A DNA stretch of 32,865 nucleotides from Kofleriaceae bacterium. GTDB lineage: Bacteria > Myxococcota_A > Polyangia > Haliangiales > Haliangiaceae. The stretch covers positions 1 to 32,865 of the forward strand of contig JBKJLC010000276.1 of assembly GCA_046597055.1 (NCBI GenBank). Reading direction: 5' to 3'. Position 1 is the stretch's first letter. Each line of letters begins with the position of its first letter. A program made the translations under genes and the position numbers. This document shows positions 1 through 32,657 of the stretch, piece by piece. The notes beneath the pieces were generated by a model. The model made no database searches. It worked only from the letters and a program-made list of their open reading frames with translations, and was not told where the DNA came from.

Positions 1-268
1 ACCAGCACGGAGGACGAGCCGAGGCGGGGACGAGGTCCCAGGCGCGCTCGTAAATTCCCCGGCCGGGTGGCGTGTGCGTCGGCGGGTCGGGGCAATGGCA
101 CCGGCGTGCGTCACGCCCGGGGACCCCGGATCGAGCAAGCGCCGGGACCTCGGCCTCGCCGACGGCGAGGCCGGCCGCGGGTGCCCCCGCCTCAGCAGGT
201 GCGGGACAGGGCGGTCGAAGGCGGTCCCGAGCGGCAGCGGGTCGAACGGTCGGGCGGCGCGTGCGTGC

Positions 269-325
269 GGTCAGCGCAGGTGCGCGCGGTCGGCGCAGGT
301 GCGCGTGGTCAGCGCAGGTGCGCGC
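269..325. repeat. Three tandem 19-bp direct repeats overlapping the stop codon of the 309-1325 gene
   Basis: ggtcagcgcaggtgcgcgc (269-287), ggtcggcgcaggtgcgcgt (288-306), ggtcagcgcaggtgcgcgc (307-325); the third copy encodes the terminal AHLR-stop on the minus strand. Confidence 0.85.
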
Positions 326-1325
326 ACTTCGGATGCGTCGCGAGGTGCGGGGGCGTGCAGGTCGCCGGCAGCGAGCACGACAGGCCGCCGACCTCGCCGA
401 CCACGACGATGCGGTCGTCGTCCTCGACCAGCGTGATCGGTGAGAGCCGCCGGACGTACTCGACCAGCGCCGCCTGGAACGGCCAGTCGGCGCGCGCGAT
501 CACGATGCGGTCGGTGCCGGCCGCGAAGTCGAGGTGGTTGTCGCGCCCCTCCGCGATGAAGCTGTTCATGATCGTCCGGAACGTGCGGGTGTCGCCGCCG
601 CCGACCCAGCCGCCGCGGGTCTGATCGAAGATCACCAGGCCGGCGACCTCGATCCGGGTGATCGAGTTGGCGGCGTCGGCGTTGAGGTACATGCAGGTCC
701 CGGCCACCGGATCGCAGTCGGTGGGGCCGACCCGGATCCGGGTGGTGCCGGCGCAGGTCACCGTGTACTTGAGCCCGGCGGCGTGCAGGAAGCCGCCGGC
801 GCGGTCGCCGAGGAGGTTGGCGCCGAACGTGGTCCGGGCGTCGTCGGCGTAGGCCGACACCCCTTGCTCGAGCGCGCGCTTGATCTGCGCGCCGGTCAGC
901 GTCATGACGACCTGATCGTTGACGAACGGGAACCAGCCCTCGACGTCGGTGCGCGAGAGCGGACCCGGGCCATAGCGGTTGCCGATGCGCGCGGTCTCGC
1001 TCGACCACGCCAGCGTGGGTGGCCCCGAGTTGGCCCCGCCGCGGATCGCGCCGCCCTGCACGAAGGCGATGTCGATGGGCGCACCGGTCCGGGTCCTGCC
1101 CTCGATGAGGAGCGCGTCGGCCATCAGGTTGGCGATGCCACCCTCCGAGGTGCGCACGTCCTCCATCTGGGTCGAGCCCTGGTTGGTGAGCGCGCCGATG
1201 ATCTCGGCCTCGACGGTGGCATCGGGGCTGGCCGCGTCATCGCCAGCGCACCCGGCCACCAGCGTGACCAGGACCAGCGCGGCGCCCCCGGCGGGGCCAG
1301 ACCGGTGTCGGATCGAGCGGCTCAT
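309..1325 (-). CDS. Lipoprotein with a stand-alone 5'-nucleotidase C-terminal domain (338 aa)
   Basis: Lipobox LVAGC; 5_nucleotid_C-like motifs RTSEGGIANLMADA, DIAFVQGGAIRG, FPFVNDQVVMTLTGAQIKRALE, NSFIAEGRDN; SD GGAGGGGG upstream; no metallophosphoesterase motifs seen. Confidence 0.8.
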   Translation of the reverse strand: MSRSIRHRSGPAGGAALVLVTLVAGCAGDDAASPDATVEAEIIGALTNQGSTQMEDVRTSEGGIANLMADALLIEGRTRTGAPIDIAFVQGGAIRGGANSGPPTLAWSSETARIGNRYGPGPLSRTDVEGWFPFVNDQVVMTLTGAQIKRALEQGVSAYADDARTTFGANLLGDRAGGFLHAAGLKYTVTCAGTTRIRVGPTDCDPVAGTCMYLNADAANSITRIEVAGLVIFDQTRGGWVGGGDTRTFRTIMNSFIAEGRDNHLDFAAGTDRIVIARADWPFQAALVEYVRRLSPITLVEDDDRIVVVGEVGGLSCSLPATCTPPHLATHPKCAHLR

Positions 1326-1358
1326 GATGTCGTCCCCCTCCGTCTCGATCCCACCGTA

Positions 1359-4300
1359 TCAATACTTCCACTCGGCCGACACCGAGAATCGCCGACCCGG
1401 GCGCGGCAGGAAGTAGCCGTACGCCGGGCGCGGCTCGAGCTGCAAGATCAGCGGCTCGGCGACGTCCGCGTCGGTCACGTTGTGGATGAACGCCCGCACC
1501 GCCAGCGGCCGGCCGCCGAAGGTGGCCTGGTGCGACACGCCGACGTCGGCGTAGCGGTAGCCGGGATGGCGGAACGCGAACCGGAGCTGCTCGAACACCG
1601 TGCGGGCGTCGTTGGCGCTGTCGCTGACGCCGTGGAAGGTCAGCGTCATCCGCACCATTCGGAGGCGCCGGTACCAGCCGCGGTCGCGGTCGCCCAGCAG
1701 CTCGCCGGCCAGCCCGAACGGCCGCAGCGACATGCCCAGGTTGAGCCGGCGCTCGGGAACCGCGCGGATGTCGTCGGTGGTGACCACGTACTCGGCCGGA
1801 CAGCTACCGTCGGACGCCTCGCGGATGCAAGTGCCGAGCTGGCGCGGGTCGACCCGCGAGGCGTTGGCGAACACGAAGTCATGGGCGGTGAGGCGCAGGT
1901 CGAGCTCGGCCTCGATGCCGGTGACCCGGTGGCCGTTGAGGTTGATGATCTGGTAGCCGGCCGGGTTGAACAGCGGATCGGCCGCGAGGATGTCGGCGGT
2001 CCGCATCTCGAACAGGTTCATCCGCAGCGCCAGGGCGCCGCCGTAGGGCTCGAGCTGGCGGCGGCGGGCCGGGCCCAGCCAGTTGCCGATCGTGCTGATC
2101 GGGCGCAGCTCGACGCCGAGCTCGGTGACCTTGGTGGTCTGCGGCTCGAGGTTCTCGTTGGGGATGCGGAAGGTCGAGTCGGTGACCTTGGTGGTCGAGT
2201 CGTAGAGCTCGGCGAAGGTCGGCGCGCGGAACGCCCAGCCGTGGATCAGCTTGAGCGTGACGCCGGCGAGCCCGCCGCCCAGGGTCGGCGCCGCGACGAT
2301 GGCGCCCCGCGGATTGGCGGTGAGGTAGCGCTTGCGGTCGGCGGCGCGGCCGGCGTCGTCGGGAGCGCGGTAGTCCGAGAACGCGTCGAAGCGCACGCCG
2401 CCGGTCAGCCAGGTCTCGGCGATCGGGTTGCCCGGCAGCTGGAGCTGGGCCTCCCCGTAGGTGGACAGCTGGAAGCGATCGGCCTCGCGCTGGTCGAGGG
2501 CGAGATCATCGTAGTTCTGGTAGCCACGGGTCGGGATGCCCTGGTCGCTCAGTTGCTGCTTCACCGCGTCGCTGAAGTTGGCGTCGGAGATGAGCGAGCC
2601 GAGATACTCGACGTAGTTCTGATCGTACGAGAACGCGCTGATCGCGCCGTACTCGGCGAGCGCGCCCAGCGTGAGCGTGCCGCGCGTCCACAGCGGCCGG
2701 GTCCGCGGCAGCTGCCAGCGCAGCTGCGGCTCGAGCGTCACCGTGTGCGTGTGATACGCGGTACGGCGGCGCAGGCCGTCGGGCGCCGGGATCGGGTTGG
2801 CCCGGCTGGTGAAGTCGTCCGGACGCACCTGGAGATCATCGTCGACCGCGAGCAGGCCATACGAGAGCCGGGTGGTCAGCTCGAGCCGGCGGCCGAGCGG
2901 CACCGTGTAGTCGAGCGGCACGTGCACGGTGACCTGCCGCAGCTGGGCGTTGGTGGCCAGGGTCTCGGCCGGCCCGAAGTTGGGGCCGCGATCGTGGACG
3001 AACAGCTTGGGCTGGAGCTGCAGCCGATCGCCGGCGCGCACCACGGCGTCGCCGCGCAGCGTGGCGGTGAGCGCGAACCGCCGGTGGGCGTCGTTCAGGT
3101 AGCGCGGGTCGTCGGCGGCGAAGGGGCCGTTCAGGTCGTAGGGCATCCGCATCCGGGCGCCCTGGCTGGCCTCGAACAGCGCCGCTACCCCGAGGTCCCA
3201 GCCGCGCCAGCGCGTGGTCTGACGCAGGTAGCCGCTGCTGGCGAAGGTGTTGGTGTCGTGGAAGGCCGACCCCGACGGGAACCAGGTGCCGCCGACCACC
3301 GCGGTGTCACCGGCGCGGGCGTCGAAGGTGAGCACGCTGATCACGCCGGCGAACGCGTTGGTGCCGTACAGCGCCGAGCCGGGGCCCCGGATGACCTCGA
3401 TCCGGCGGATGTCGTCGATCGGCAGGTCGTACGAGACCGCGCCATCGTAGAGGCTGTTCAGGCGCACCCCGTCGAGCAAGACCAGCAGGTCGGCCGGCGC
3501 CTTCTGGCCGCGGAACAGCAGGTCGTAGTCGCCGAGGTTGGTGTAGCGGTGGGTGAAGCCCGGCACCAGCTGCAGCGCCTCGGCCAGGTTGGTGACGCCG
3601 AGCGCGCGCAGGTCGTCGTGGGTCAGCACGCTGACGATCGACGGCGCCTTCGATCGCTGCTGGGCCCAGCGCGAGGCCACGCTGACGATCTCCTCCTTGA
3701 CCCGGAAGAACGCCAGCTCCGAGCCGTCGGTCGCCCACGGGTCGCGCTCGCCGCGGGTGTCCTCGGCGCCGGCGACCAGCGGTGCGGCCGCGAAGTCGTC
3801 GTCCGACAGTTCGGCGATCGACGCGTACACGTCGTCGGCCAGGCGGGCCAGCGACGCCGACAGCGGCAGGCCGACCGCGGCGGCGGCGGCCTGGTTGACG
3901 ACCAGCGCGGTGCCGACCGGGGCCGCGACCCCGAGCTGGTCGGGGCGGGCCTCGCCGTCGAGGATCTCGGCGGCCATGGTGGCGGCCTGCGAGCCGAGGT
4001 CGGCGTCGTTGACCTCGACCGCCATCGCCGCCCCGACCTCCACGAACTCGCGGGAGAACGCGACCAGCGGCAGCCGGTGGCGCCGGGCGGCGGCGACCAG
4101 CGCCAGGAAGCCCTCGGGCGTGTACACGGCGGGGTCGGCCAGCGGATAGACCGCGGTGTCGACCGCGGCGCCGCCGAACCGGGCCAGCCGATCGAGGCGG
4201 TGGATCGGCACGACCTCGATCGCGATGCCGAGGACCTGCCCGGCCTGGCGCAGCTCGACCAGCGCCGGCGGCTGGTGCCGCTCCGAGCGGGTGACGACCA

Positions 4301-4748
4301 CCACCCGGCGCAGGCCGGGGACCAGCAGCTTCATCTGGGTCAGCTGGGCGTCGGCCGGGACCTCGAGCGCGACCCCGGCGACGTGGCCGCGCCCGAGCGC
4401 GCCGCGGTACGAGCGCCAGTCGAGGACGCTGGTGAACACCACCGGCACCTCGTGCTGCGCGGAGGCGGCCACGTGCGCCGCGCGGGCCCCGACCGCGAAC
4501 ACCAGCGCGACGTCGCGATCGAGCAGGCCGTCGACCAGGCGCTCGGCCGCCGCCCGATCATCGTCGAGCACGTGGGTCTCGATCCGGACGCCCGGGACGG
4601 TGAGCACCAGCGTGTCGCGGAACGCCTGGGCCGGTCGCTGGTAGGCGGCGACCGCGCTGCTCTGGAGGATCACGACCCGCGGTTGCGGGGCCGCCCGCGC
4701 CGCCGTCACCGACGCGGCGATCAGGGCGAGGACGATCAGCCACCTCAT
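1359..4748 (-). CDS. TonB-dependent receptor with an N-terminal ABC-type substrate-binding domain (ABC_sub_bind-like), 1129 aa
   Basis: Start MRWLIVLALIAAS (ATG 4748, GGAGG SD, ATGA overlap with upstream stop). About 3825-4690 is SBP-like (VPVVFTSV, LLVPGLRRV, LGSQAATMAAEILDG, LVVNQAAAAAVGL). Plug motifs APSIVSVLT, LAEALQLVPG, LLVLLDG, IRRIEVIRGPGSALYGTNAFAGVI; barrel motifs AFRAPTFAELY, NENLEPQT; C-terminal PGRRFSVSAEWKY. Confidence 0.9.
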   Translation of the reverse strand: MRWLIVLALIAASVTAARAAPQPRVVILQSSAVAAYQRPAQAFRDTLVLTVPGVRIETHVLDDDRAAAERLVDGLLDRDVALVFAVGARAAHVAASAQHEVPVVFTSVLDWRSYRGALGRGHVAGVALEVPADAQLTQMKLLVPGLRRVVVVTRSERHQPPALVELRQAGQVLGIAIEVVPIHRLDRLARFGGAAVDTAVYPLADPAVYTPEGFLALVAAARRHRLPLVAFSREFVEVGAAMAVEVNDADLGSQAATMAAEILDGEARPDQLGVAAPVGTALVVNQAAAAAVGLPLSASLARLADDVYASIAELSDDDFAAAPLVAGAEDTRGERDPWATDGSELAFFRVKEEIVSVASRWAQQRSKAPSIVSVLTHDDLRALGVTNLAEALQLVPGFTHRYTNLGDYDLLFRGQKAPADLLVLLDGVRLNSLYDGAVSYDLPIDDIRRIEVIRGPGSALYGTNAFAGVISVLTFDARAGDTAVVGGTWFPSGSAFHDTNTFASSGYLRQTTRWRGWDLGVAALFEASQGARMRMPYDLNGPFAADDPRYLNDAHRRFALTATLRGDAVVRAGDRLQLQPKLFVHDRGPNFGPAETLATNAQLRQVTVHVPLDYTVPLGRRLELTTRLSYGLLAVDDDLQVRPDDFTSRANPIPAPDGLRRRTAYHTHTVTLEPQLRWQLPRTRPLWTRGTLTLGALAEYGAISAFSYDQNYVEYLGSLISDANFSDAVKQQLSDQGIPTRGYQNYDDLALDQREADRFQLSTYGEAQLQLPGNPIAETWLTGGVRFDAFSDYRAPDDAGRAADRKRYLTANPRGAIVAAPTLGGGLAGVTLKLIHGWAFRAPTFAELYDSTTKVTDSTFRIPNENLEPQTTKVTELGVELRPISTIGNWLGPARRRQLEPYGGALALRMNLFEMRTADILAADPLFNPAGYQIINLNGHRVTGIEAELDLRLTAHDFVFANASRVDPRQLGTCIREASDGSCPAEYVVTTDDIRAVPERRLNLGMSLRPFGLAGELLGDRDRGWYRRLRMVRMTLTFHGVSDSANDARTVFEQLRFAFRHPGYRYADVGVSHQATFGGRPLAVRAFIHNVTDADVAEPLILQLEPRPAYGYFLPRPGRRFSVSAEWKY

Positions 4749-5503
4749 GGCGCCCTCCAGCTGGTGTAGTCGAGCAGACGGAGCGTGGCCCGCCCGGTCC
4801 GGCTCTGGTCCATGGTCGCGAACCCGGCGACCACCCGCGCGAGGTCCCGGGCGCCGACCTCGCCGGTCGCGCACAGCGGCGCGTTGGGGATCGGCGCCGA
4901 GCGATACAGCTCGACCAGGCCGTCGGCGAGCGCGCGATCGACCCGGGCCAGCTCGGCCAGGGTCGCGGGCGTGACGTAGGCCGCGTCGGCGCGCTGGAAC
5001 GTCAGCCCGAGGAGCGCATCGAAGCCCTTGGTCACGCGCAAGACGCGCGGCTTGCGGGGCGCGCGGAGGCTGCGGGCCAGCGGCAGGCCCTGGACCGCGG
5101 CCGGCGACGAGGTGGTGGCGACCACCTTGATGTCGACCGCGCGCGTGCCCTTCCGGACCAGCAGCACCTTGTGATGGGTGCTGGCGAGGCCGCGGAGCGG
5201 CACCATCACGACCCGGACCTCGAGCCCGAGCTCGCGCGCGGTCTCGGGCGCGATGATGACGAGGTCGAGGCGCCGGTCCAGCAGGTGCCGGCGCAGATCG
5301 GCGAGCCGGGTGAACGCGATGAACCGGGCATCGGGATCGATCGTGCGCAGGAACGCCGTCATCGTGGTCCGCAGCTGCCCGACGTTGGCGAGGTTGGCGT
5401 CGGGATCGAACATCGCCACGTCGAGGTCAGCGCGCGCGACCCGGGGTGCGGTCAGGAGCCACGCCGCGACCACGACCTGGACCAGAGCCCGGCGCGCGCC
5501 CAC
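4745..5503 (-). CDS. PhnD/SsuA/transferrin-fold periplasmic substrate-binding protein (252 aa)
   Basis: Signal peptide ending ARA; motifs KVLLVRK, DALLGLTFQRADAAYVT, LYRSAPIPNAPL, MDQSRTGRATLRLL resembling phosphate/phosphonate-binding type II SBPs; GTG start 3 nt after the upstream stop. Confidence 0.7.
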   Translation of the reverse strand: MGARRALVQVVVAAWLLTAPRVARADLDVAMFDPDANLANVGQLRTTMTAFLRTIDPDARFIAFTRLADLRRHLLDRRLDLVIIAPETARELGLEVRVVMVPLRGLASTHHKVLLVRKGTRAVDIKVVATTSSPAAVQGLPLARSLRAPRKPRVLRVTKGFDALLGLTFQRADAAYVTPATLAELARVDRALADGLVELYRSAPIPNAPLCATGEVGARDLARVVAGFATMDQSRTGRATLRLLDYTSWRAP

Positions 5504-5506
5504 GAC

Positions 5507-5983
5507 TCAGTCGTGCCCCAGGAACGCGAGATAGCGATCGGTCAGCCCGTCGAAGATCATCGGCGTCTGGCAGGTCGGGCACGCCCGCGCCGGCATCACT
5601 GCGCGGTCGGCCGCGAGCTCGGCGGCGACGTCGAGCTCGACCGAGTGCTCGGCCCGGCAGTGCAGGCAGGTGTAGGTGGCGAGGATGGTCTCGACCACCG
5701 CGCCCAGCACGGCGTCAGTGACCATGTTGAACAGCGCGACCATCGGCTCGCTGGCGCGCCGGATCACGACGGGCCCGCGCGGCGTGGCATCGGCGAGGAA
5801 GCGCACCCAGCGCGACACCCCCTCGGAGTTGATGAACTCGACACCCTCGAGGTCGAGGGTGAGCGGGCCGGTCCGGGTCCGCGCCCACTCGACCAGATCG
5901 CAGCGCTCGTCGATCGAGCCGCCGAGGGCCGTGACCTCGACGCCATCGACCTGGCTTAGCTCGATGCGCAACCCGTCGCTCAC
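5507..5983 (-). CDS. STAS-like anti-anti-sigma protein with C-terminal Zn-ribbon (158 aa)
   Basis: True start is GTG 5983 (GTGA overlap): VSDGLRIELSQVDGVEVTALGGSIDE...LTLDLEGVEFINSEGVSRW, where INSEG matches the DSxG phospho-Ser motif; then CLHC...CPTC. Confidence 0.75.
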   Translation of the reverse strand: MSDGLRIELSQVDGVEVTALGGSIDERCDLVEWARTRTGPLTLDLEGVEFINSEGVSRWVRFLADATPRGPVVIRRASEPMVALFNMVTDAVLGAVVETILATYTCLHCRAEHSVELDVAAELAADRAVMPARACPTCQTPMIFDGLTDRYLAFLGHD

Positions 5984-6972
5984 GCGGCGCTCCGCTCGGC
6001 CGCGGTCGCCACGAACGCGTGGAACGAGGGCACCAGCTCGAGCCGCACCCCGCCCCCGCGTACGTCGAACAGCGCGATCATCTCGGTCCACCGGCCCGGA
6101 TCGAGGTTGCACACGAGGTGATGGACGCAGCTCGCGGTCAGGGCGAGGCCGAGGCCGGCGCCGGCGCCGGCGGTCCCGGCGGTCCCGGCGGGACGCGGCG
6201 CCAGGCCGGGCGTGAGCGCGCGGCGCACGCAGCGCGCCAGGGTCGCGACCGCGAGCGAGCCCCAGCGATCGACGACCTCGATCGCAAAGTAGCGGTCGTC
6301 GGCGGCCCACCGGATCGCGACCTGCTCGTCGGCGGCGAGCGCGAAGTCGTCGACCCGCTGCTGCGCCGACCGCACGTGGGTGCCGGCCTGGTCGACCGGG
6401 CCGTGGAAGAGCGCGTTGCACACCAGCTCGTCGGCGGCCTGGGCTGCCAGCCAGCGCAGACGGCTGCCGTACCCGCGCGCGGCGAGGTCGGCGATCAGCG
6501 CGGCCTGGACCCCGCGCCGATCGCCGGCGCAGGTGAGGTGGTGCGCGACCGCGACGCAGCCCCACGCCAGGTACTTCTCCATGCCGAACAGGTCGCCGCG
6601 CAGCAGCTTGAGCGCGGTCACCGCCAGCTCGTCGAGCGGGCGCGGCGGGCCGAGCGCGCCCGCGCTCGACAGGGCGAACGCGGGGAAGCGCGCCAGGTCG
6701 GCCGTCTCGACCTGGTCGTTCGCGGTCACCGCGAGCAGGCAGGCGCGGACGCCGGCGGCCGCGGCCTCCTCGAGGAAGCCGGGCTCGTCGGCGAGCACGG
6801 CGTGCTCGGCCACCAGCAACTCGGGGTGCGCGGCCAGCGCGGCCCGGCCGTCGGTGACGGTCGCGGTGACGTGGAGCGGGCGCAGCGTCGGACGCAGGTG
6901 GTCCGCAACCCCGCGCCGGACCTCCGGAGCGCGGTGGACGATGACAATTCCCCTGGGACCCGTGCCGTCCAT
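5980..6972 (-). CDS. RsbW/SpoIIAB-like GHKL serine kinase with a degenerate receiver-like N-terminus (330 aa)
   Basis: N-box ADELVCNALFHG, G1-like EVVDRWGSL, G2 GAGLGL; DLFGMEKYL linker; ATG 6972 lies just downstream of a sigma70-like promoter. Confidence 0.75.
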   Translation of the reverse strand: MDGTGPRGIVIVHRAPEVRRGVADHLRPTLRPLHVTATVTDGRAALAAHPELLVAEHAVLADEPGFLEEAAAAGVRACLLAVTANDQVETADLARFPAFALSSAGALGPPRPLDELAVTALKLLRGDLFGMEKYLAWGCVAVAHHLTCAGDRRGVQAALIADLAARGYGSRLRWLAAQAADELVCNALFHGPVDQAGTHVRSAQQRVDDFALAADEQVAIRWAADDRYFAIEVVDRWGSLAVATLARCVRRALTPGLAPRPAGTAGTAGAGAGLGLALTASCVHHLVCNLDPGRWTEMIALFDVRGGGVRLELVPSFHAFVATAAERSAA

Positions 6973-6987
6973 GTACCCCGTCCGGTC

Positions 6988-7016
6988 ACAGTATCGTCGG
7001 GGGTCTGGCTTGACAA
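6988..7016 (-). promoter_or_regulatory. Sigma70-like promoter for the kinase-STAS-SBP-TBDT operon
   Basis: Minus strand TTGTCA (7016-7011), 17-bp spacer, TACTGT (6993-6988); overlaps a plus-strand TTGACA (7010-7015). Confidence 0.6.
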
Positions 7017-7051
7017 GACTCCGGGCTGGCACGGTCTACTGGGCGCGACGC

Positions 7052-8776
7052 ATGCCGACGGAGCTACAGGCACCAGCGGCGGGTCCGCCGACCGGTCAGC
7101 GGCCGCGCTCGTCGATCGCGGTGCAGATGATCGCGTCGACCGCGGTGCTGCTCGCGGTGGTGGTCGTGGTGTTCTTCGCGATCACGTGGGTGCAGCTCGA
7201 CAAGCTCGCCGACGAGCAGGCCGAGGCCCGCGGCGAAGCGGTCGACCAGGTGACCCGACAGACCGGCGTGTCGATCAGCCAGACCATCGCCGCCGCCAGC
7301 TCGGTCGCGCTGGCCGAGGGCGGCTACACGTTCATCCAGCGGCTGCTCGAGACCACCGCGCGGTCGAGCCCCGACGTGCTGTGGATGGTGGTGGCCGACG
7401 AGTCGGGGCGGATCGTCGCCGACTCGCGCGGCGCGCGCGGGGTGGCGCGCGCGGCGCCGCTGCCGCCCGCGGTCGCCGTTCAGGCGCGGGCTCGGCCGGG
7501 CGCGTCGGTCGAGCTGCCGCGCGCGGGCGCCGGCCCGCGGATCCTGGCCACGGCGATCCTCGGCCGCGACGAGCTGGCCGATGGCGCCGACGAGTGGACC
7601 GCGCCGGACGCGGTGGTCGCGCCGGCGGAGGTGATCGGCTTCGTCGAGGTCGCGACCGACACCGGCGTCCACGAGCGCGAGGCGGCCCGGGCCCGCCAGG
7701 CCGCGCGCGAGCGGGTCGGCGACACCGCCCGGCTGGCGGCGATCGCCGCGGTGGTCCTGCTGGTGCTGGGCGTGGTCGTCGCGGTCCAGCAGAGCCTCGG
7801 GATCGCGCGGCCGCTGCGCCAGCTGTCGGCGCAGGCGCGGCGGATCGCGCACGGCGAGATCGGCCAGGTCGAGCCGTCGGGCGCCGCCGAGATCCGCGAG
7901 CTGTCGACCAACCTCAACCACATGGCGACCCGGCTCGGCCAGCTCCTGGTCGAGACCGCCAAGAAGGCCTCGCTCGAGAAGGAGGTCGAGATCGCGCAGC
8001 TGGTGCAGAAATCGCTGGTGCCACCGTCGCGGCTGGTCCGGGTCGACAGCATCGACCTGGTCGGCTACTTCGAGCCGGCCAGCAAGTGCGCCGGCGACTG
8101 GTGGCTGTGGCGCCAGCTCGAGAACGGCCGCGTGCTCCTGCTGATCGGCGACGTCACCGGCCACGGCCTGCCGTCGGCGCTGATCGCGGCGACCGCGATC
8201 GGCAGCGCGCAGACCCTGCCCCGCAACGTCACCGCCGATCGCGCGCTCATGCACCTCAACGACGCGGTGCTGCGCGCCGCTCGCGGCGAGTTCGCGATGA
8301 GCTGCTTCGCCGCGGTGATCGACGCCGAGCGCCAGGTGATCGAGTTCTCGAGCGCCGGCCATCCCCTGCCCTACATCGTGCGCCGCGCCGGCAAGAAGCA
8401 CGAGCTGGCCTCGCTGGTCGCGCGCGGGCCGCTGCTCGGGATCCACGAGGTGCCGCAGTTCAAGCTGGTCGAGCGGCCGCTGCAGCCCGACGACGTGATC
8501 GTGCTGTTCACCGACGGGGTCACCGAGAGCCGCGGCCCGGACGGCACCGACTGGGGCGAGCGCCGCATGCAGCGCGCGCTGCTCGAGAGCGTCCAGCCGG
8601 CCAGCGACGCCGACCTGCGGCCGACCCTGACCGACGTCCGCGGCCGCATCATCGGCGCCCTGCGCGCGTTCGCCGGCGACGGCCCGCCGCGCGACGACAT
8701 CACGCTGGTGCTTGCGCAGATCAAGCCGACCGCGGTCGCCCGGCCGCGGGTGAAGAGCGTCTCCGGCGCCGGCTAG
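7052..8776 (+). CDS. Membrane-bound HAMP + SpoIIE/PP2C (RsbU-like) serine phosphatase (574 aa)
   Basis: Two TM helices (AVLLAVVVVVFFAITW; AAIAAVVLLVLGVVVAV) flank a periplasmic domain; HAMP IARPLRQLSAQARRIAHG...EIRELSTNLNHMA; PP2C motifs AGDWW, IGDVTGHG, SAGHP, FTDGVTE, DDIT all intact. Confidence 0.92.
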   Translation: MPTELQAPAAGPPTGQRPRSSIAVQMIASTAVLLAVVVVVFFAITWVQLDKLADEQAEARGEAVDQVTRQTGVSISQTIAAASSVALAEGGYTFIQRLLETTARSSPDVLWMVVADESGRIVADSRGARGVARAAPLPPAVAVQARARPGASVELPRAGAGPRILATAILGRDELADGADEWTAPDAVVAPAEVIGFVEVATDTGVHEREAARARQAARERVGDTARLAAIAAVVLLVLGVVVAVQQSLGIARPLRQLSAQARRIAHGEIGQVEPSGAAEIRELSTNLNHMATRLGQLLVETAKKASLEKEVEIAQLVQKSLVPPSRLVRVDSIDLVGYFEPASKCAGDWWLWRQLENGRVLLLIGDVTGHGLPSALIAATAIGSAQTLPRNVTADRALMHLNDAVLRAARGEFAMSCFAAVIDAERQVIEFSSAGHPLPYIVRRAGKKHELASLVARGPLLGIHEVPQFKLVERPLQPDDVIVLFTDGVTESRGPDGTDWGERRMQRALLESVQPASDADLRPTLTDVRGRIIGALRAFAGDGPPRDDITLVLAQIKPTAVARPRVKSVSGAG

Positions 8777-8855
8777 CGCCAGCGATCGAGGCTCGTGAAT
8801 GCCAGCGCCGGTGGGGCCGGCATGGCGACCCACAAGCGAGCGGCAGCCGCGACGG

Positions 8856-9110
8856 TCACGGCGGCGGTGGCGAGGCGCAGCTGTCCTCGCACTGGCGCGT
8901 GATCGTCTCGATGCTGGTCGCCTGCATCTGGCGGGCGCGGACGCAGTCGGCGACGCACGCGGACGGCGGCGCATCCACGGCCGTCGCCGCGTCGGCGGGC
9001 GTGGCCGGGCCGGTCGGCCGGTTGACGAGCGGGACCGCGGTCGGCCCCGGGCTTGGCTCGGACGCGCCGCACGCGGCGAGCCCGAGCGCGAGCAAGACGG
9101 CGCGGCTCAT
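8856..9110 (-). CDS. Small lipoprotein with two CxxxC motifs (84 aa)
   Basis: [14 protein letters not shown] lipobox; ATGA overlap with the sucB stop; Pro/Ala linker, then CVADC...CEDSC. Confidence 0.65.
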
Positions 9111-10363
9111 AGCTCGAGCAACATGCGGTCGGGCGCCTCGAGCCGGTCCTTGACCGCAACCAGGAACGAGACCGCCTCGCGGCCGTCGACCACCCGGTGG
9201 TCGTAGGTCAACGCGACGTACATCATCGGGCGGATCACGATCTGGTCGGCGACCACCATCGGACGCTTGACGATGTTGTGCATCCCGAGGATGCCGGTCT
9301 GCGGGTAGTTCAGCAGCGGGGTCGACATCATCGAGCCGTAGATGCCGCCGTTGGTGATGCTGAAGGTGCCACCCAGCAGATCGTCGAGCGCGAGCTTGCC
9401 GGCGCGCGCCTTCTCGGCGAGCGCCAGGATGCCCTTCTCGATCTCGGCGAACGACAGCGTGTCGACGTCGCGGAGCACCGGCACCACCAGGCCCTTCGGG
9501 GTCGAGACCGCGATGCCGAAGTCGTAGTGCTTCTTGTAAACGATGCTGTTGCCCGCGACCTCGGCGTTGATGCCGGGATAGAGCTTGCTGGCCGCGACAC
9601 ACGCCTTCGCGAAGAACGACATGAAGCCGAGCTTCACGCCGTGGGCTTTCTCGAAGCTGTCCTTGTAGCGGGCGCGGGTGTCCATCACCGCGGTCATGTC
9701 GACCTCGTTGAAGGTCGTGAGCGACGCGGTCTCGTGCTGGGCCTGGACCAGGCGCTCGGCGACCCGCTTGCGCAAGGTCGACATCGGCACGACCTCGTCG
9801 CGCGGATCGATCGGGCGGGCTGGCGTCGGCGCCGGGGTGCCCGCCGCCGGGGCCGCCGCCGCCACGGTCGGGACCACGCCGCGCTCGCGGGCGATCCGCC
9901 GCTGCGACGGCGACAGCTTGAGCAGCGCCTCGTCGTCGAGCTTGCCGGCGCCATCGCCAGCCTTGGCCGCTGCCTTGGGCGCGGCCGGCGCCGCCTTGGG
10001 CTCGGCCGCCCCGGGCGGCGCCGCCGCCGGAGCCTTGGCCGCCGCGGGTGCGAGCGCCTTCGTGGCAGGTGCGGGTGCGACGGCCGCGACCGGCGCCGGC
10101 TCGGCCTTGGCCGCGGCCTTGCCGGCGGCGCCGGCGGTGACCGCGCCGACCACCTGGCCGACCTTGACGGTGGCGCCCTCGGCGACCGCCTGGGCCGACA
10201 GCGCGCCGGCGACCGGCGACGGGAGCTGCACGGTGACCTTGTCGGTCTCGAGATCGATCAGCGGCTCGTCGAGCAGGACCTGGTCGCCGACCTGCTTGAG
10301 CCAGCGGGCCACCACCGCCTCCGTGATCGACTCGCCGAGCTGGGGAACTACGAGATCAGCCAT
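9107..10363 (-). CDS. sucB: 2-oxoglutarate dehydrogenase E2, dihydrolipoamide succinyltransferase
   Basis: Lipoyl motif LETDKV, Ala/Pro linker, [18 protein letters not shown], catalytic YDHRVVDG; directly downstream of sucA; AGAGG SD. Confidence 0.97.
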
Positions 10364-10422: not shown

Positions 10423-13272
10423 TCACCGGGAGAACGCCGCCTTGAAGATGCGCTCCTGCTCGAGCCCGTGCGCCTTGTGTGACCCGGTGGCCGGGCTGGC
10501 GCTGGCGTCGCGGCTCACGCACCTTACCGGCCGGTCGAGCAGGCGGGCCAGCCGCGGGACGATGAAGGTCGCCGCGCCCATGTTCTCGGGCTCGTCCTGC
10601 ACCCACGCGACGTCGTCGAGCTTGGCGAAGTCGGCCAGGGTCGCGGCCAGCTGGTCGGCGCGGAACGGGTACAGCTGCTCGATGCGCGCGATCGTGGTGG
10701 TGTCGTCGCCGCGCCGCTTCCGCTCCTCGACCAGCTCGTAATAGATCTTGCCGGTGCACAGCAGCCCGCGCTTGGCCGCGGTCGCCGGCACCAGCGGGTC
10801 GGGCAGCACCCGCTGGAAGGTGCCGGAGGTCAGCTCGTCGACCGTCGAGGTCGCGGCGGGAAGTCGCAGCAGGCTCTTGGGGGTCATCACGATCAACGGC
10901 TTGCGCCACGGCCGCTTCACCTGCCGGCGCAGCAGGTGGAACATCTGCGCCGGGGTGGTCGGCTGGCAGACCTGGATGTTGTCCTCGGCGCACATCTCGA
11001 GGAACCGCTCGAGGCGCGCGCTCGAGTGCTCGGGCCCCTGCCCCTCGTAGCCGTGCGGCAGGAGCAGCACCAGCCCCGACAGCCGGTGCCACTTGTCCTC
11101 GGCCGACGTGATGAACTGGTCGATGATCACCTGGGCGCCGTTGGCGAAGTCGCCGAACTGGGCCTCCCACAGGATCAGCGCGTCCGGGTAGTCGAGCGAG
11201 TAGCCCCACTCGAAGCCGAGCACGCCGGCCTCCGACAGCGGGCTGTCGTAGACGCGGCAGGTGCCCTGCTCGGCGTGCAGCGCGCACAGCGTGTTGTGCT
11301 CGGCGCCGGTCTTGATGTCGGTGATCAACGCGTGGCGATGGCTGAAGGTGCCGCGCGAGCAGTCCTGTCCGGTCAACCGGACGTTGGTGCCGTCCCACAG
11401 CAGCGAGCCGTAGGCGAGCATCTCGGCCATGCCCCAGTCGAGCGGGCGCTCGCCGCGGCCCATCTGGGCCCGTTGGTCGAGCAGGCGGACGATCTTGGGG
11501 TGCGGCGTGAAGCCGGCCGGCGGGCTGGTCATCCGCTCGGCGATCGCCGACACGACCTCGCGGGTGACCGCGGTCTCGGCGTCGGGCACCGCGTGGGCCG
11601 GGCCGCCGACGTAGCCGCGCCACAGCCCGGTCAGCGCCTGGGTCCGCGGCCGCTGGGTGGTCGAGCGCGCCGCCGCCAGCTCCTCCTCGAGCGCGCGGTT
11701 GCGGCGCTCGGTGATCGCGAGGACGTCCTCGCCGCTGACCACGGCCTCGCCCAGCAGCCGCTTGCCGTAGATCTCGACGACCGACGGCTTCTTCTGGATG
11801 CGGTCGTACATGAGCGGCTGGGTGAAGCCGGGCTCGTCCATCTCGTTGTGGCCGTACTTGCGGTAGCAGTACAGGTCGATGATCACGTCGGACGTGAAGG
11901 TCGCCCTGTAGTCCATCGCCATCTCGGTGACCTGGGCGACCGCGTCGAGGTCCTCGCCGTTCACGTGCCAGATCGGGCACTGGATCATGTGGGCGACGTC
12001 GGTCGCGTACGGCGTCGACCGGGTCTCCTGCGGCGACGCGGTGAAGCCGACCTGATTGTTCACCACGATGTGGACGGTGCCGCCGGTGCGATAGCCCTGC
12101 AGGTTGTGCAGCTGCAGCACCTCGGTGACCAGGCCCTGCCCGGCGAACGCGGCGTCGCCGTGGATCAGCATGCCCATGACCTTGCGGCGCTCGACGTCGC
12201 CGTGGCGGCGCTGCTTGGCGCGGACCCGGCCGACCACGATCGGATCGACCGCCTCGAGGTGGCTCGGGTTGAACGCCAGCGACAGGTGGACCGCGTTACC
12301 GAGCGGATCGATCCGGTCCGACGAGTAGCCGAGGTGGTACTTGACGTCGCCGCCGCCCGACAGCGCCTCGGGCTCGATGTCCTCGAACTCGGCGAAGATG
12401 TCGCGCGCCGCGCGCTGCATGATGCACTCGAGCGCGGTCAGGCGCCCGCGGTGGGCCATGCCGATCACCGCCTCGATCGCGCCGTGGCGCGCGCCGTGGG
12501 TGAGGACCAGGTCCATCATCGGGATCAGCGCCTCGCTGCCCTCGAGCGAGAACCGCTTGGTGCCGGGATACTTCACGTGACAGAAGCGCTCGAACGCCTC
12601 GGCGTTGACCAGCAACTCGAGCATGCGGCGCCGGATCGGCGCCTCGGGGGCGCGGCGCAGGGTCGTCTCCATGCGCTCGGCCAGCCAGCTGCGCTTGGCC
12701 GGCGAGTCGATGTGCGCGAGCTCGAGCCCGACCGTGCCGCAGTACACGTCGCGCAGGTGGTCGATCAGCTGGCCCAGGGTCGCGCGCGGCAGGCCATGGA
12801 CCCCGGTCGACGCCAGCTCGAGCTGCTGCTGCAGCGGCGAGAAGCCCCAGGTCGCCGGCGCCAGCTCCGACACCTGCACGCGCTGGATCAGCCCCAGCGG
12901 ATCGAGATCCGCCGCGAGGTGGCCGCGGCTGCGGAACGCGTTGACCAGCGGCCACACGCTCGGTGCGTCGGCCAGCGGGCCCAGGGTCACCTTGCCGGGG
13001 CGCTCGCTGGCGCGTCCGATCGGCGCGATCGCCGCCGCGGCCGCGATCGCGGTCGCCTGGCCGGTGCCGCGGGTGTGGCCGTTGCCCGGACGCGCCTCGG
13101 GCGCGGCGCTGGCGGTCGCCGCACCGTGGCTGCCGCTGGCGCCGTTCCCGCCGTGGCCCTCGAGCAACGCAGCCCAGCTGGGATCGACCGAGCTGGCGTC
13201 GCTCTGGTAGCGCTCCGACATCTCGTCGATGAAAGCGAGCGAGCTGGACAGGCCAAGAACGTCAGGATGCAT
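10423..13272 (-). CDS. sucA: 2-oxoglutarate dehydrogenase E1 component
   Basis: KRFSLEG, GMAHRGR, GDVKYHLG, NPSHLE, ThDP motif HGDAAFAGQG...VVNN, RGTFSHRH, WEAQFGDFANGAQ, LPHGYEGQGPEHSSARLER. Confidence 0.98.
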   Translation of the reverse strand: MHPDVLGLSSSLAFIDEMSERYQSDASSVDPSWAALLEGHGGNGASGSHGAATASAAPEARPGNGHTRGTGQATAIAAAAAIAPIGRASERPGKVTLGPLADAPSVWPLVNAFRSRGHLAADLDPLGLIQRVQVSELAPATWGFSPLQQQLELASTGVHGLPRATLGQLIDHLRDVYCGTVGLELAHIDSPAKRSWLAERMETTLRRAPEAPIRRRMLELLVNAEAFERFCHVKYPGTKRFSLEGSEALIPMMDLVLTHGARHGAIEAVIGMAHRGRLTALECIMQRAARDIFAEFEDIEPEALSGGGDVKYHLGYSSDRIDPLGNAVHLSLAFNPSHLEAVDPIVVGRVRAKQRRHGDVERRKVMGMLIHGDAAFAGQGLVTEVLQLHNLQGYRTGGTVHIVVNNQVGFTASPQETRSTPYATDVAHMIQCPIWHVNGEDLDAVAQVTEMAMDYRATFTSDVIIDLYCYRKYGHNEMDEPGFTQPLMYDRIQKKPSVVEIYGKRLLGEAVVSGEDVLAITERRNRALEEELAAARSTTQRPRTQALTGLWRGYVGGPAHAVPDAETAVTREVVSAIAERMTSPPAGFTPHPKIVRLLDQRAQMGRGERPLDWGMAEMLAYGSLLWDGTNVRLTGQDCSRGTFSHRHALITDIKTGAEHNTLCALHAEQGTCRVYDSPLSEAGVLGFEWGYSLDYPDALILWEAQFGDFANGAQVIIDQFITSAEDKWHRLSGLVLLLPHGYEGQGPEHSSARLERFLEMCAEDNIQVCQPTTPAQMFHLLRRQVKRPWRKPLIVMTPKSLLRLPAATSTVDELTSGTFQRVLPDPLVPATAAKRGLLCTGKIYYELVEERKRRGDDTTTIARIEQLYPFRADQLAATLADFAKLDDVAWVQDEPENMGAATFIVPRLARLLDRPVRCVSRDASASPATGSHKAHGLEQERIFKAAFSR

Positions 13273-13278
13273 GGCGGG

Positions 13279-13299
13279 CGGATTCTAGTGCCGAATCCG
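13279..13299 (-). promoter_or_regulatory. Putative sucA -10 box (TAGAAT) overlapped by a 7-7-7 inverted repeat
   Basis: Minus strand TAGAAT (13287-13282) 9 nt before the ATG; cggattc-tagtgcc-gaatccg inverted repeat. Confidence 0.5.
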
Positions 13300-13449
13300 A
13301 CCCGCGGCTACCGATGACCGTGCCGGGAATGTACCCGGGATCCGAGGACTTGGGCCACGTTCACCGGTCGAGCTGGCCACCGGAGACCGGACGGTGACCG
13401 CGACGTGGGTACGGCTACCAGGATTTCATCGGCGCCCGCTGGGCCCGGT

Positions 13450-15747
13450 TCAGCAGTCCGACGCGCTGGCGCAGGTCCGGACCGGATCGAGCCCCCCGCC
13501 CAGGCCACCTTGGCCGTCGCTGCCGTCGCGGACCGGCGCGGTTGGCGCGTGCGCGCCGCCATTGCCGCCCGAGCCCGCCATGCCGCCGGTGATCGCGGCG
13601 TCGTGGGTGACGGTGGCGCCCGCGACCCACGCGATGCCGACCGAGCGCCCGCCCTGGCCGCCAGCCCCGCCGCCGGCGTGACCGCCGTGACCGCCGGCGC
13701 CGCCGCTGCCCGGGACCGCCGAGCCTGGGCTCTGGCCGGGGCCATTGCCGACGCCGGGGTCCTGACCGCGACCGCCGGTGCCTCCGGGGGCGCCGGTGCC
13801 TCCGTTGCCGCGGCTGATCGCGCAGCTCGCCAGCGTCGCGCTGCCGCTGGCCACGAACACGCCGAAGCTGCCGCCGCCCCCACCACCGCCCCCGCCGCCG
13901 GCTCGCGCCGCGCAGCCACCCGCGCCGCCACCGCCACCGCCCGCACCGTACGCGTCGGTGCCGGCGTCGCAGCCGGCGCCACCGCCGCCGCCACCACCGC
14001 CGCCGCCGTTCTCGCCGGTGCTGCCGCTGTTGCCGCCGCGGGCGTACCAGTAGCCGTTGGTCGTGAAGCCGTTGGTCTGGCGGCTGCCCCCGGCACCGTT
14101 GCCGACCGCGCCCGGGTTGCCGTCGGGATCCGGGCTGCGCGCGCACGCGCCGTCGGTCTCGGTGCTGCCGTAGCCGCGCTCGCCGAGCACGCCGGCGCGG
14201 AAGTCGCCGTCAGCGCCGCTGCCTCCCTGACGCGAGGTGCAATTGCCGCACACGCCACACGACCCGCACCAGCCACAGTCGCTGTCCATCTGGCCGCCGG
14301 CGCCGCCGGCGCCGCCGTCCATGTCGCGACCCGACGGGCTCTGGCTGCAGGTGTTCGCGCCCCGCGCGCCGCCGCCGCCCCGCCCCGAGGTGTCGCAGAC
14401 GGTGTCGTACTCGCGCCCATCGCCGCCGACGCTGCCGTCCATGTACGACTGGCGTCCGACGATGACGGCGTCGGTGCCGGAGGTGCCGGGCGCCCCGGGC
14501 GCGCCGTTGCCGCCGAGGATCTGGACCCGCTCGAGCACGACGGTCGCGCCATCGACGTGCACCCCGTAGCTGCTGCGGCCGTTGCCCGCGACGGTGCCGG
14601 CGGCGTCGGGCGCGTCGATGATGACGTCGCCGATCGTCACCGGCACGATCAGGCCGTGCGCGCGCACGCCGAGGTACTCGCCGTCGCCGCCGTTGCTGGT
14701 GTCGTGGCCGCCGGTGATGGTCACCCGGTGGGCCGGGTTGCTGTACGGGCCGCGCTGCCAGCCGAAGCTGTACCCGCCCCACACGTTCACGCCGTTCACC
14801 AGCACGACCACCTCGTTGTAGGTGCCGGTCTGGACGAACACGTGGGTGCGGCCCGCGGTCGCGGCCCGGATGATGCCGTAGCTGATCGTCTGGCACGGCG
14901 CCATCGAGGTCAGGCCGCAGGTCGGCGTGTTGGCGCCGCCGCCGGCGACGAAGACACCGCGGGTGACGTCGCCGTCGATGCCGTCACAGTTGGCGTCGAC
15001 GTACGAGCCGTCGGGGTCGTCGCTGGGCGCCGGCGGCGCGCACCCGCCCCAGCCGGTGGCGCCCTGACAGGTCCGGGTGCCGCTGCACGCGGTGTTGAAC
15101 GGCGTCATGATCGTGCAGCTCTCCTGCATCCCCATGCTGGTCGCGTCGCAGTCGCACGCGCCCGACGCCGGCACGCACTGTCGGATCACCTCGCCGCCGG
15201 CCGACTGGTCCTGGCAGACGAAGCCGTTCGGGCACGCGATCGTGCGGCAGTCGCGCGCGCAGAACTCCTTGCCATCGGCGTATTCCAGGCAGCGATCGTC
15301 GCCGACCTGGAGGCACTCGGCGTCGCTGGTGCATGCCGAGCACAGCTGATCGACGACCGGCACGCACACCGCGCTGACGGTGCCGGGCTCGATGACGTCG
15401 ACCACGCCGAGACAGCCCCACGCGGTCGGGCAGTCACCGCCGATGCACTGGATCGTGCAGCGACCGCCGGTGCCGATGAAGATGCAGATGTCGGACTCGC
15501 ACTCGGTGCGATCGGCGCATGGCTCGCCGAAGCCCTTGCGGGGCCGGCCGTCGACCGCCTCGTCGCCGCCGACCACGCAGGTGCCACTGGCATCGCACTC
15601 GTACCCGGACGGACACGCGACGGTCGCATCGCACGCGCAGACCTCGGCGCCGGGATCGCAGGCGGCGCCGCCAGGCTTCGACGACGCGCATCCGGCGAGC
15701 AGGATCGCCAGCACTCCCCCGAGGACAGCCGTGATCACTGACTGCAT
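13450..15747 (-). CDS. Cys-rich and Gly-rich (PGRS-like) surface lipoprotein with a MopE-type putative metal-binding motif (765 aa)
   Basis: MQSVITAVLGGVLAILLAGC lipobox; many Cys-rich repeats; DANCDGIDGD motif; beta-helix-entry-like PCQTISYGI...VFVQTGTYNE; long GGxGGxG tracts; TAGATT 7 nt upstream of the ATG. Confidence 0.8.
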   Translation of the reverse strand: MQSVITAVLGGVLAILLAGCASSKPGGAACDPGAEVCACDATVACPSGYECDASGTCVVGGDEAVDGRPRKGFGEPCADRTECESDICIFIGTGGRCTIQCIGGDCPTAWGCLGVVDVIEPGTVSAVCVPVVDQLCSACTSDAECLQVGDDRCLEYADGKEFCARDCRTIACPNGFVCQDQSAGGEVIRQCVPASGACDCDATSMGMQESCTIMTPFNTACSGTRTCQGATGWGGCAPPAPSDDPDGSYVDANCDGIDGDVTRGVFVAGGGANTPTCGLTSMAPCQTISYGIIRAATAGRTHVFVQTGTYNEVVVLVNGVNVWGGYSFGWQRGPYSNPAHRVTITGGHDTSNGGDGEYLGVRAHGLIVPVTIGDVIIDAPDAAGTVAGNGRSSYGVHVDGATVVLERVQILGGNGAPGAPGTSGTDAVIVGRQSYMDGSVGGDGREYDTVCDTSGRGGGGARGANTCSQSPSGRDMDGGAGGAGGQMDSDCGWCGSCGVCGNCTSRQGGSGADGDFRAGVLGERGYGSTETDGACARSPDPDGNPGAVGNGAGGSRQTNGFTTNGYWYARGGNSGSTGENGGGGGGGGGGAGCDAGTDAYGAGGGGGGAGGCAARAGGGGGGGGGGSFGVFVASGSATLASCAISRGNGGTGAPGGTGGRGQDPGVGNGPGQSPGSAVPGSGGAGGHGGHAGGGAGGQGGRSVGIAWVAGATVTHDAAITGGMAGSGGNGGAHAPTAPVRDGSDGQGGLGGGLDPVRTCASASDC

Positions 15748-15823
15748 GAACGGCAATCTAACATGTGGCCTGACCACTACCGCCAGTCCTCATCGACGAG
15801 GCGTGGTCGAGATCCCGATGTAG

Positions 15824-16426: not shown

Positions 16427-17178
<752 letters not shown>

Positions 17179-17194
17179 GGCTACTCTCGCCCGG

Positions 17195-18205: not shown

Positions 18206-18212
18206 GAGCGAC

Positions 18213-18368
18213 AGAATGCCCCGGAACCGTTGGCGCCGCCAAGTCGTGGGCCGCCGTGCCGGGGCCGACCTGACGCGCGAGTTCTATGGATGTGGGTATA
18301 TGCCCACCGGCCTCTTGACCCACGGCCCGGGAGTTTGCTCGCGCGCGGCCGCCGCGCGGGCCTACCAT
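18213..18368. promoter_or_regulatory. Divergent promoter region with palindromes
   Basis: Minus strand TTGGCG-18bp-CATTCT before 18205; plus strand TACCAT (18363-18368) 8 nt before GTG 18377; palindromes ttggcgccgccaa (18230-18242) and gtgggtatatgcccac (18292-18307). Confidence 0.4.
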
Positions 18369-18376
18369 GGTCGGCG

Positions 18377-19888: not shown

Positions 19889-19894
19889 GACGAC

Positions 19895-28004: not shown

Positions 28005-28008
<4 letters not shown>
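26992..28008 (-). CDS. elbE: NAD-dependent epimerase/dehydratase (extended SDR), ElbE-like (338 aa)
   Basis: ATG 28008 in ATGA overlap; [22 protein letters not shown]; directly downstream of the elbD-like gene as in Myxococcus xanthus. Confidence 0.75.

Positions 28009-32657
<4,649 letters not shown>

Follow-up and report, generated by a model that had tools for sequence, protein, structure and literature searches.

The stretch of DNA analysed here, the window, is the entire 32,865-bp contig (C2) of a Kofleriaceae draft genome of 8.38 Mb in 303 contigs (94% complete, 7.6% contaminated), and at one end it carries a cluster in which genes for a TonB-dependent receptor and solute-binding proteins adjoin those for a HAMP-PP2C phosphatase, a kinase-like protein and a STAS protein. 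The window has a G+C content of about 72%, and gene calling by codon-position G+C (GC3 phase) and start-codon mapping resolves the cluster into six genes, five co-oriented on the minus strand and one divergent from them:

309-1325, minus strand: G5, lipoprotein, 338 amino acids (aa)
1359-4748, minus strand: G4, binding-protein domain fused to a TonB-dependent receptor, 1129 aa
4745-5503, minus strand: G3, PhnD-like binding protein, 252 aa
5507-5983, minus strand: G2, STAS protein, 158 aa
5980-6972, minus strand: G1, kinase-like protein, 330 aa
6973-7051, no strand: divergent intergenic region between G1 and G6, 79 bp (start mapping)
7052-8776, plus strand: G6, HAMP-PP2C phosphatase, 574 aa

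By start mapping, G1 and G2 overlap in GTGA, G2 and G3 are 3 nucleotides (nt) apart, G3 and G4 overlap in ATGA, and 33 nt separate G4 from G5. An earlier note on this DNA, made from the sequence alone, had proposed the six genes, all five junctions and the domain make-up of the products, and start mapping, Pfam, profile and fold matches bear it out on each count. Its observation that ABC permease and ATPase, sigma factor and diguanylate cyclase are missing also held: no ABC permease or ATPase, sigma factor or GGDEF domain was found among the window's other scanned genes. A scan of positions 1-9200 for promoters and terminators gave nothing beyond shuffled expectation, and no sigma-70-like promoter match was found in the 79-bp gap. 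Positions 1-308 hold nothing readable as a gene; the contig stops 308 bp beyond G5, and the operon could extend past the window.

The receptor fusion and the periplasmic proteins

Pfam recognizes in G4 an ABC_sub_bind domain (6e-22, residues 70-307) and a Plug (2.3e-22), and no STN domain. The parts are ordered from the N-terminus as follows:

3828-4688, minus strand: ABC_sub_bind domain, about residues 21-307, after the signal peptide (1-20) (Pfam, profile)
3696-3827, minus strand: acidic, Ala-rich linker of 44 residues (308-351), from the binding domain to the TonB box (sequence, composition)
3672-3695, minus strand: TonB-box-like motif EEIVSVAS, residues 352-359 (alignment of fused proteins)
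1362-3653, minus strand: Plug (residues 366-469) and beta-barrel (Pfam Plug)

In a profile search the N-terminal domain matches 3lft, 6hni and 3lkv, ligand-binding proteins of solved structure, at about 1e-31; close to these, it is a full, two-lobed ABC_sub_bind protein. The EEIVSVAS motif, which we take to resemble the TonB-box consensus, is invariant at I354, V355, V357, A358 and S359 in 6 of 6 fused proteins. In FecA-type transducers the signalling domain precedes the TonB box, and from this extra periplasmic domain the signal goes to an inner-membrane protein; G4 thus has its ABC_sub_bind domain at the position that the signalling domain occupies in such transducers. The cluster differs from FecA/FecR/FecI, the extension of G4 being a 290-residue binding protein in which no STN was found, and the window has neither a FecR-like anti-sigma factor nor a sigma factor of the extracytoplasmic-function (ECF) type.

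Among 52 hits in a set of 5.8 billion proteins, five are full-length fused homologues, of 1129-1143 aa and 53-64% identity, and PF00593 is precomputed for four of the five (P0003-P0006). Because these five carry both domains, and because a metagenome contig (L013, described below) reads across the junction, the fusion is not an artefact of assembly. Searches of 40 relatives for fusion orthologues returned only plug-level matches, and the alignment of fused receptors, scanned over genome contigs, gave 101 pattern matches and no relatives.

Of the two other envelope proteins, G3 matches Phosphonate-bd (1.2e-10) and is predicted to be secreted, its signal peptide ending at ARA/DL; its ortholog on L013 is 61% identical. 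G5 is a predicted lipoprotein (lipobox VAGC, Cys26) that matches 5_nucleotid_C (5.9e-17); of the two domains of 5'-nucleotidases it has the C-terminal, substrate-binding one but not the metallophosphatase. The earlier note's idea of a nucleotide or phospho-compound as ligand goes back solely to the family names of G5 and G3. L-Trp, L-Tyr and L-Phe are the ligands of three solved ABC_sub_bind proteins according to Table 1 of a review (PMC10443332).

Phosphatase, kinase-like protein and STAS protein

G6 is a two-pass membrane protein with HAMP (4.7e-11, residues 251-296) and SpoIIE (3.8e-39; PP2C, 358-557) domains and no Pfam CHASE8, HisKA or HATPase domain. Its PP2C motifs for metal binding are intact, GDWW and GDVTGHG being invariant in the family alignment and TDGV and DDIT present. 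It matches the SiaA model at 6e-19 over HAMP and PP2C, with 68 bits against a cut-off of 700. Between the membrane passes, the periplasmic domain (about residues 50-222, nt 7199-7717) was modelled with a predicted local distance difference test score (pLDDT) of 87.5 and has the PDC, or extracytoplasmic PAS, fold; Foldseek matches it to the sensor domains of WalK, DctB, CitA, DcuS, KinD and LuxQ. A model of this domain in complex with the ABC_sub_bind domain of G4 scored 0.02 against a mark of 0.32, a value uninformative either way. The available part of a 2010 survey of the myxobacterial phosphatome merely lists a HAMP-SpoIIE orthologue group (PMC2887360).

The AlphaFold2 model of G1, built on 80 family members (pLDDT 90.5; predicted template-modelling score, pTM, 0.90), finds its best Foldseek match in LvrC of Leptospira (7.5e-8), followed by RssB, SpoIIAB (TM-score about 0.7) and RsbW (TM-score 0.81, root-mean-square deviation 3.1). 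On this model G1 is a receiver-like domain followed by an RsbW/SpoIIAB-like Bergerat ATPase/kinase domain, and the RsbW-like kinase fold read from the sequence alone is confirmed. Its ATP-binding motifs include conserved E182 and N186 (N box), D235, G238 and G271-AG-x-G275 (GxGxG box). In the receiver, H13, R14 and E56 replace the acidic pocket and the phospho-acceptor is missing, so that it is a pseudo-receiver. The G1 family, unannotated, comprises 1440 representative clusters at E values up to 0.001 and 659 at up to 1e-10; in the ESM Atlas the clusters nearest to G1 are called 'hypothetical protein' and are mostly from Myxococcota.

LvrC (PDB 9qih) is reported to be an anti-sigma factor under the control of a receiver, its sigma factor being unknown (PMC13269768). 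It shares with G1 the order of domains, receiver then RsbW-like Bergerat, but its receiver is canonical and, according to the same report, phosphorylated by LvrB (PMC13269768), whereas G1 has H13, R14 and E56, and a STAS partner.

The family profile of G2 matches the anti-sigma antagonist TM1442 (2e-5), SpoIIAA (1.2e-4) and RsbV (0.008), which confirms the STAS identity given to it in the earlier note. Word-index search found only two homologues besides G2 itself. Aligned with its L013 ortholog, seven paralogues from the same genome and two homologues from databases (n=11), G2 shows an INS-x-G motif whose Ser53 does not vary across the 11 sequences. Ser53 aligns with the serine of the DS(S/A)G motif of TM1442, SpoIIAA and RsbV, and in those proteins the DSxG serine is the phosphorylated residue. 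Four conserved cysteines, C106, C109, C135 and C138, form a C-terminal zinc ribbon, for which there is no Pfam family.

The STAS-zinc-ribbon family has 12 matches in the window's genome (G000: contigs C269, C68, C46, C122, C302, C7, C224, C59 and C245; loci L094-L103) and, among 301 genomes sampled from the phylum, is present in 45 (37 of 208 genera). At one of these loci (L096, G000:C302, 3281-7658) a G1-like/G2-like pair is divergent from a receiver-GGDEF-EAL protein, a hint that some paralogous switches may act on enzymes of cyclic di-GMP; at another (L097, G000:C7, 10290-13492) the gene for a G1-like kinase precedes a long open reading frame (ORF) that starts with two tandem STAS-zinc-ribbon-like modules.

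In SiaA/SiaB/SiaC(/SiaD) of Pseudomonas aeruginosa and in RsbU/RsbV/RsbW of Bacillus, a STAS-type protein is the common target of a PP2C phosphatase and an opposing GHKL serine kinase, roles that G2, G6 and G1 would have here. The window differs from these in having no cyclase or sigma factor in the cluster, a zinc ribbon on G2 and a pseudo-receiver on G1, and they for their part have no receptor and binding-protein input.

Recurrence of the cluster and its precedents

On the 6.2-kb metagenome contig L013, a divergent PP2C gene is followed by genes for kinase, STAS protein, PhnD-like protein and fused receptor, in the order of the window and with 49-67% identity, up to the contig's end within the receptor. 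Within the genus, G6 used as query on 17 genomes yielded 54 rows, of which the best 40 (E up to 4e-62) were kept; the 14 weaker rows left out (E 2e-51 to 6e-41) are matches to the phosphatase domain only. About 7 kb on each side of every locus was then searched with the window's proteins and their paralogues. Beside the phosphatase were found a TonB receptor in 20 of the 40 loci, a secreted PhnD-like protein in 31, a large TPR protein also in 31, a G2-like STAS-zinc-ribbon protein in 21 and a G1-like kinase in 9, with nothing else detected at 5 (two of these on contigs under 6 kb). Three layouts recur:

Type I: PP2C, TPR, PhnD-like, STAS; 14 loci
Type II: PP2C, receptor, TPR, PhnD-like; 13 loci
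Type III: STAS, kinase and receptor divergent from PP2C, TPR and PhnD-like; 6 loci, 5 genomes

Phosphatase, receptor, kinase and STAS protein occur together in seven of the 40 (the window, L110, L113, L114, L115, L130 and L142; 6 genomes). A Peripla_BP_6 binding protein follows the STAS gene in 6 of 6 type III loci (L114 is cut by the contig end), and the window has the same parts as these, with the type-I binding protein fused rather than separate, the TPR protein missing and the lipoprotein added. The window's own genome (G000) has a type I (C269) and a type II (C81) locus and no type III. Scanning 28 flanking ORFs in five representative loci revealed no ABC transporter domain, and the suggestion that the binding proteins work without transporter genes agrees with the 31 of 40 loci at which PhnD-like proteins accompany G6-like phosphatases.

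An uptake operon and a partner-switch module might merely abut in this genome, as chance neighbours; in favour of this, the window form is missing from 146 other genomes of the order. The overlapping and 3-nt junctions, however, tie the switch genes to those for binding protein and receptor, the order is kept on L013, and the parts recur in 6 other loci; we consider accidental adjacency barely credible. With the order kept on L013, the parts recurring across the 40-locus survey and four of them together in seven loci, the linkage of the cluster's genes is not chance. Co-occurrence of receptor and binding protein with kinase, STAS protein and phosphatase, on which the earlier note had staked its reading, is thus found on L013 and at 6 loci in 5 genomes.

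At the type I locus on C269, a 308-aa protein was tried as a diverged G1-like kinase and rejected (hhalign probability 0.5%). It belongs to the secreted PhnD-like family, 5 of whose 18 members match Phosphonate-bd (best 1.1e-9); direct BLASTP of this family against G3 was blank and hhalign weak. Directly after the STAS-zinc-ribbon gene, type I loci (L094, G000:C269, 1599-3799; L120, 12451-14653) encode a cytoplasmic PAS histidine kinase and a single-domain receiver, which are possibly the output of the type I switch.

The receptor has more distant relatives with comparable neighbours. Searching with the receptor alignment gave 80 metagenome loci, of which only L013-L018 resemble G4 over the barrel. 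The unfused receptors of L014-L018 are 29-32% identical to G4 there (30% for L014, over residues 352-1064), and five of five adjoin a membrane HAMP sensor, either kinase or PP2C. At L014 the genes are those for a DctP-type binding protein, a YfiR-like protein, a CHASE8 kinase, the receptor and a G5-like lipoprotein, beyond which lies an FHA-domain sigma-54 activator (12227-13624); at L015, a YfiR-like protein, a CHASE8 kinase, a receiver and the receptor; at L016, L017 and L018, PP2C then receptor, with a G5-like lipoprotein in addition at L017. G5-like proteins thus follow related receptors on L014 and L017, and such a lipoprotein lies downstream in three of the four loci readable on that side. 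At 9 of the 74 loci that match at plug level only, the receptor adjoins a YfiR-like or ABC_sub_bind protein and/or a kinase, one of them (L062, 42% G+C) with a binding protein of 319 aa, a hybrid kinase of 764 aa and a receptor of 684 aa. A HAMP-SpoIIE gene stands alongside 6 of the 11 best receptor loci in relatives. In the window's genome a YfiR-like (DUF4154) gene is followed by one for a CHASE8-HAMP-PAS hybrid kinase (L109, G000:C64, 497-4249), with PilZ upstream and no receptor seen nearby.

NCBIfam curates a trio of this kind, comprising the TOL_0244 receptor (NF053590), the YfiR-like TOL_0243 (NF053591) and a 'kinase, YfiR-like protein-associated' (NF053592), to which the nearest unfused relatives of G4, those of L014 and L015, belong; the L014 kinase matches NF053592 at 9e-45. 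G4 itself scores 79.3 bits against NF053590, whose cut-off is 645. The trio and YfiBNR of Pseudomonas resemble the window in that a HAMP sensor makes up one unit with a small periplasmic protein and a protein of the outer membrane, YfiBNR with an OmpA-like lipoprotein, not a TonB receptor, as its outer-membrane part. They differ from it in that the window's periplasmic module is ABC_sub_bind and not DUF4154, of which the window has none, and in that G6 is a phosphatase without Pfam CHASE8.

The relationship raises the question of whether the cluster is a YfiBNR-like sensor of envelope status, in which binding-like modules repress or activate the phosphatase, their capture reporting receptor occupancy, TonB energisation or envelope stress, and nothing is handed on. 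Receptors related to G4 do sit with YfiR-like (DUF4154) and CHASE8-HAMP sensors (L014, L015), in a trio named after YfiR; YfiR-like and ABC_sub_bind proteins take the same place in such clusters and share a C-terminal motif, at an hhalign E of only 5e-4 and probability of 31%; and the fusion in G4 would keep its domain permanently at the outer membrane. That domain, however, is fully two-lobed and near to ligand-binding proteins (3lft, 3lkv and 6hni at about 1e-31), the plug and the conserved TonB-box-like motif point to a working transporter, and in the Pah system, taken up next, ligand reaches the binding protein and alters affinities, going by the available text (PMC10570129). We regard a pure status sensor as decidedly unlikely.

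The principle of a relay from receptor to binding protein to sensor has one experimental precedent, with a histidine kinase as output. For Cycloclasticus sp. P1, affinities are reported of 92 nM between the TonB receptor PahS (687 aa) and the periplasmic binding protein PahP (318 aa) and of about 10 nM between PahP and the sensor kinase PahK (771 aa); polycyclic aromatic ligands change both, and mutants of each gene no longer respond (PMC10570129). PahS/PahP/PahK/PahR shares with the window, and also with L013 and 6 loci of the genus, a receptor, a transporter-less binding protein and an inner-membrane sensor encoded together; PahP, as the same text describes it, is attached to the receptor and relays the signal to the sensor (PMC10570129), and the likeness to the window is one of composition. 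L062 also matches the Pah system in composition. The output of the Pah system is a histidine kinase and GacA-type regulator, whereas that of the window is PP2C with a kinase/STAS switch, G6 having no HisKA or HATPase; and the Pah binding protein is free, whereas in the window one is fused ahead of the TonB box and a second, PhnD-like, is free. LuxP/LuxQ, TorT/TorS and similar systems also depend on docking of a periplasmic binding protein to a PDC-type sensor, LuxP to LuxQ, whose domain is among the fold matches of G6; to our knowledge, none of these units includes an outer-membrane receptor, and the output is a histidine kinase.

In knowing of no characterised system with this composition, the earlier note had overlooked PahS/PahP/PahK/PahR (PMC10570129) and the NCBIfam trio NF053590/NF053591/NF053592. 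We found in print neither a binding protein fused before the TonB box nor a partner switch as output of such a relay, and no description in the literature of a receptor-linked PP2C/STAS partner switch.

A candidate route from cell surface to partner switch

Six genes whose products have recognizable folds, among them a phosphatase with its PP2C motifs, a STAS protein with its serine, a G1 with ATP-binding motifs and a receptor with an added domain before its TonB box, lie together here and recur elsewhere. On balance we favour, with reservation, reading them as a cell-surface pathway in which a ligand of the receptor G4 acts through periplasmic binding modules on the activity of G6, and so on the phosphorylation state of G2. 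The lipoprotein G5 would capture the ligand at the outer membrane; TonB-energised G4 would import it and deliver it to its own ABC_sub_bind domain and/or to free G3; and the loaded binding module would dock on the PDC domain of G6, as PahP does on PahK in the available account (PMC10570129). HAMP would then relay the signal to PP2C, which would remove phosphate from Ser53 of G2, in opposition to G1. Unphosphorylated G2 may bind G1 and free G1's partner, a sigma factor or other protein; alternatively, the output may pass through the zinc ribbon of G2. Of the interpretation offered in the earlier note, the partner-switch parts and their co-occurrence with receptor and binding proteins elsewhere thus stand, and the lack of a known precedent and the guess at a nucleotide or phospho-compound are overstated or find no support.

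The same genes could instead make up an ordinary uptake locus with its regulator next door, a nutrient being imported through an ABC permease encoded elsewhere and the phosphatase sensing otherwise, through its PDC domain, and regulating expression of the operon. Transfer from TonB receptor to binding protein is standard (BtuB-BtuF, FhuA-FhuD), PDC domains often bind small ligands directly (those of CitA, DcuS and DctB are among the fold matches of G6), and regulators usually adjoin what they control. No permease or ATPase was found, however, in the scanned window genes or the 28 flanking ORFs of the five related loci, a partner elsewhere being possible; PhnD-like proteins accompany the phosphatase in 14 loci without a receptor; and the binding domain of G4 lies ahead of the TonB box, where transducers have their signalling domain. 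An uptake locus of this kind seems to us unlikely.

Several observations weigh against the cell-surface pathway itself. In Pfam, G1 reaches only 0.003 with HATPase_c_2 and G2 only 3.6e-4 with STAS_2, both under cut-off. G1 has DRWGS where DxGxG is the usual box consensus of such kinases, and, given this box and a receiver without phospho-acceptor, its kinase activity is an assumption. The binding, transport and phosphorylation steps are putative, and a switched partner, sigma factor or cyclase, was not found among the scanned window genes and may be encoded elsewhere. The resemblance of G6 to CHASE8 kinases (hhalign probability 77%) covers only the first membrane helix and about 60 residues, and between G3 and the PhnD-like proteins encoded at the genus loci the alignment is weak (hhalign probability 7%). 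The 14 type I loci without a receptor indicate that a receptor is not obligatory for G6-like phosphatases, and 13 receptor-bearing loci have no adjacent kinase or STAS gene. The exact fused form is rare, at five full-length homologues in 5.8 billion proteins, and a search of the order's 146 other genomes, at E up to 1e-30, gave none. Finally, synteny comparison showed the cluster to be missing beside sucB/sucAB in five genomes of the same genus.

The genes sucB and sucA lie to the right of the cluster in the window. SucA is single-copy and 73-84% identical to SucA of same-genus genomes, which marks the contig as native rather than contaminating sequence from binning; since those genomes have no such cluster beside sucB, the cluster is a lineage-specific addition. 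Farther along, the window encodes a 775-aa ORF (13453-15777, minus strand) without a Pfam match, whose G+C is strong at third codon positions but also unusually high at second positions (0.65); a 974-aa family-2 glycosyltransferase, a 1284-aa HEAT-repeat protein and a TPR protein in succession (16964-25226, plus strand); and a 1550-aa protein with fatty-acyl reductase (NAD_binding_4, Sterile), AMP-binding, carrier and acyltransferase domains (28008-32657, minus strand).

In Gram-negative bacteria, trans-envelope sensing of molecules too large or too scarce for diffusion through porins is known mainly from systems of the FecA/FecR/FecI type. The PahS/PahP/PahK work and the unpublished NCBIfam curation point to a second route, from receptor to periplasmic binding protein to membrane sensor, and the cluster of the window and its relatives would extend this route to serine-phosphorylation partner switches. 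A bolder proposal, which we put forward tentatively as possible rather than probable, is that the cluster represents TonB-dependent signalling independent of ECF factors, in which the FecA-type signalling domain has given way to a complete solute-binding protein and FecR/FecI to a PP2C/STAS/RsbW-like switch, and that the G4 fusion is a 'Rosetta stone' marking receptor and binding protein as one physical unit across a large family of envelope sensors of myxobacterial type. As a natural fusion of the two, G4 offers independent genomic support for their physical coupling. The cluster also defines two sizeable unannotated families, the pseudo-receiver-RsbW-like kinases and the STAS-zinc-ribbon proteins. 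A single genus holds 40 loci, about two to three per genome, of a wider family that is as yet unstudied and in which such routes from cell surface to partner switch may be at work.

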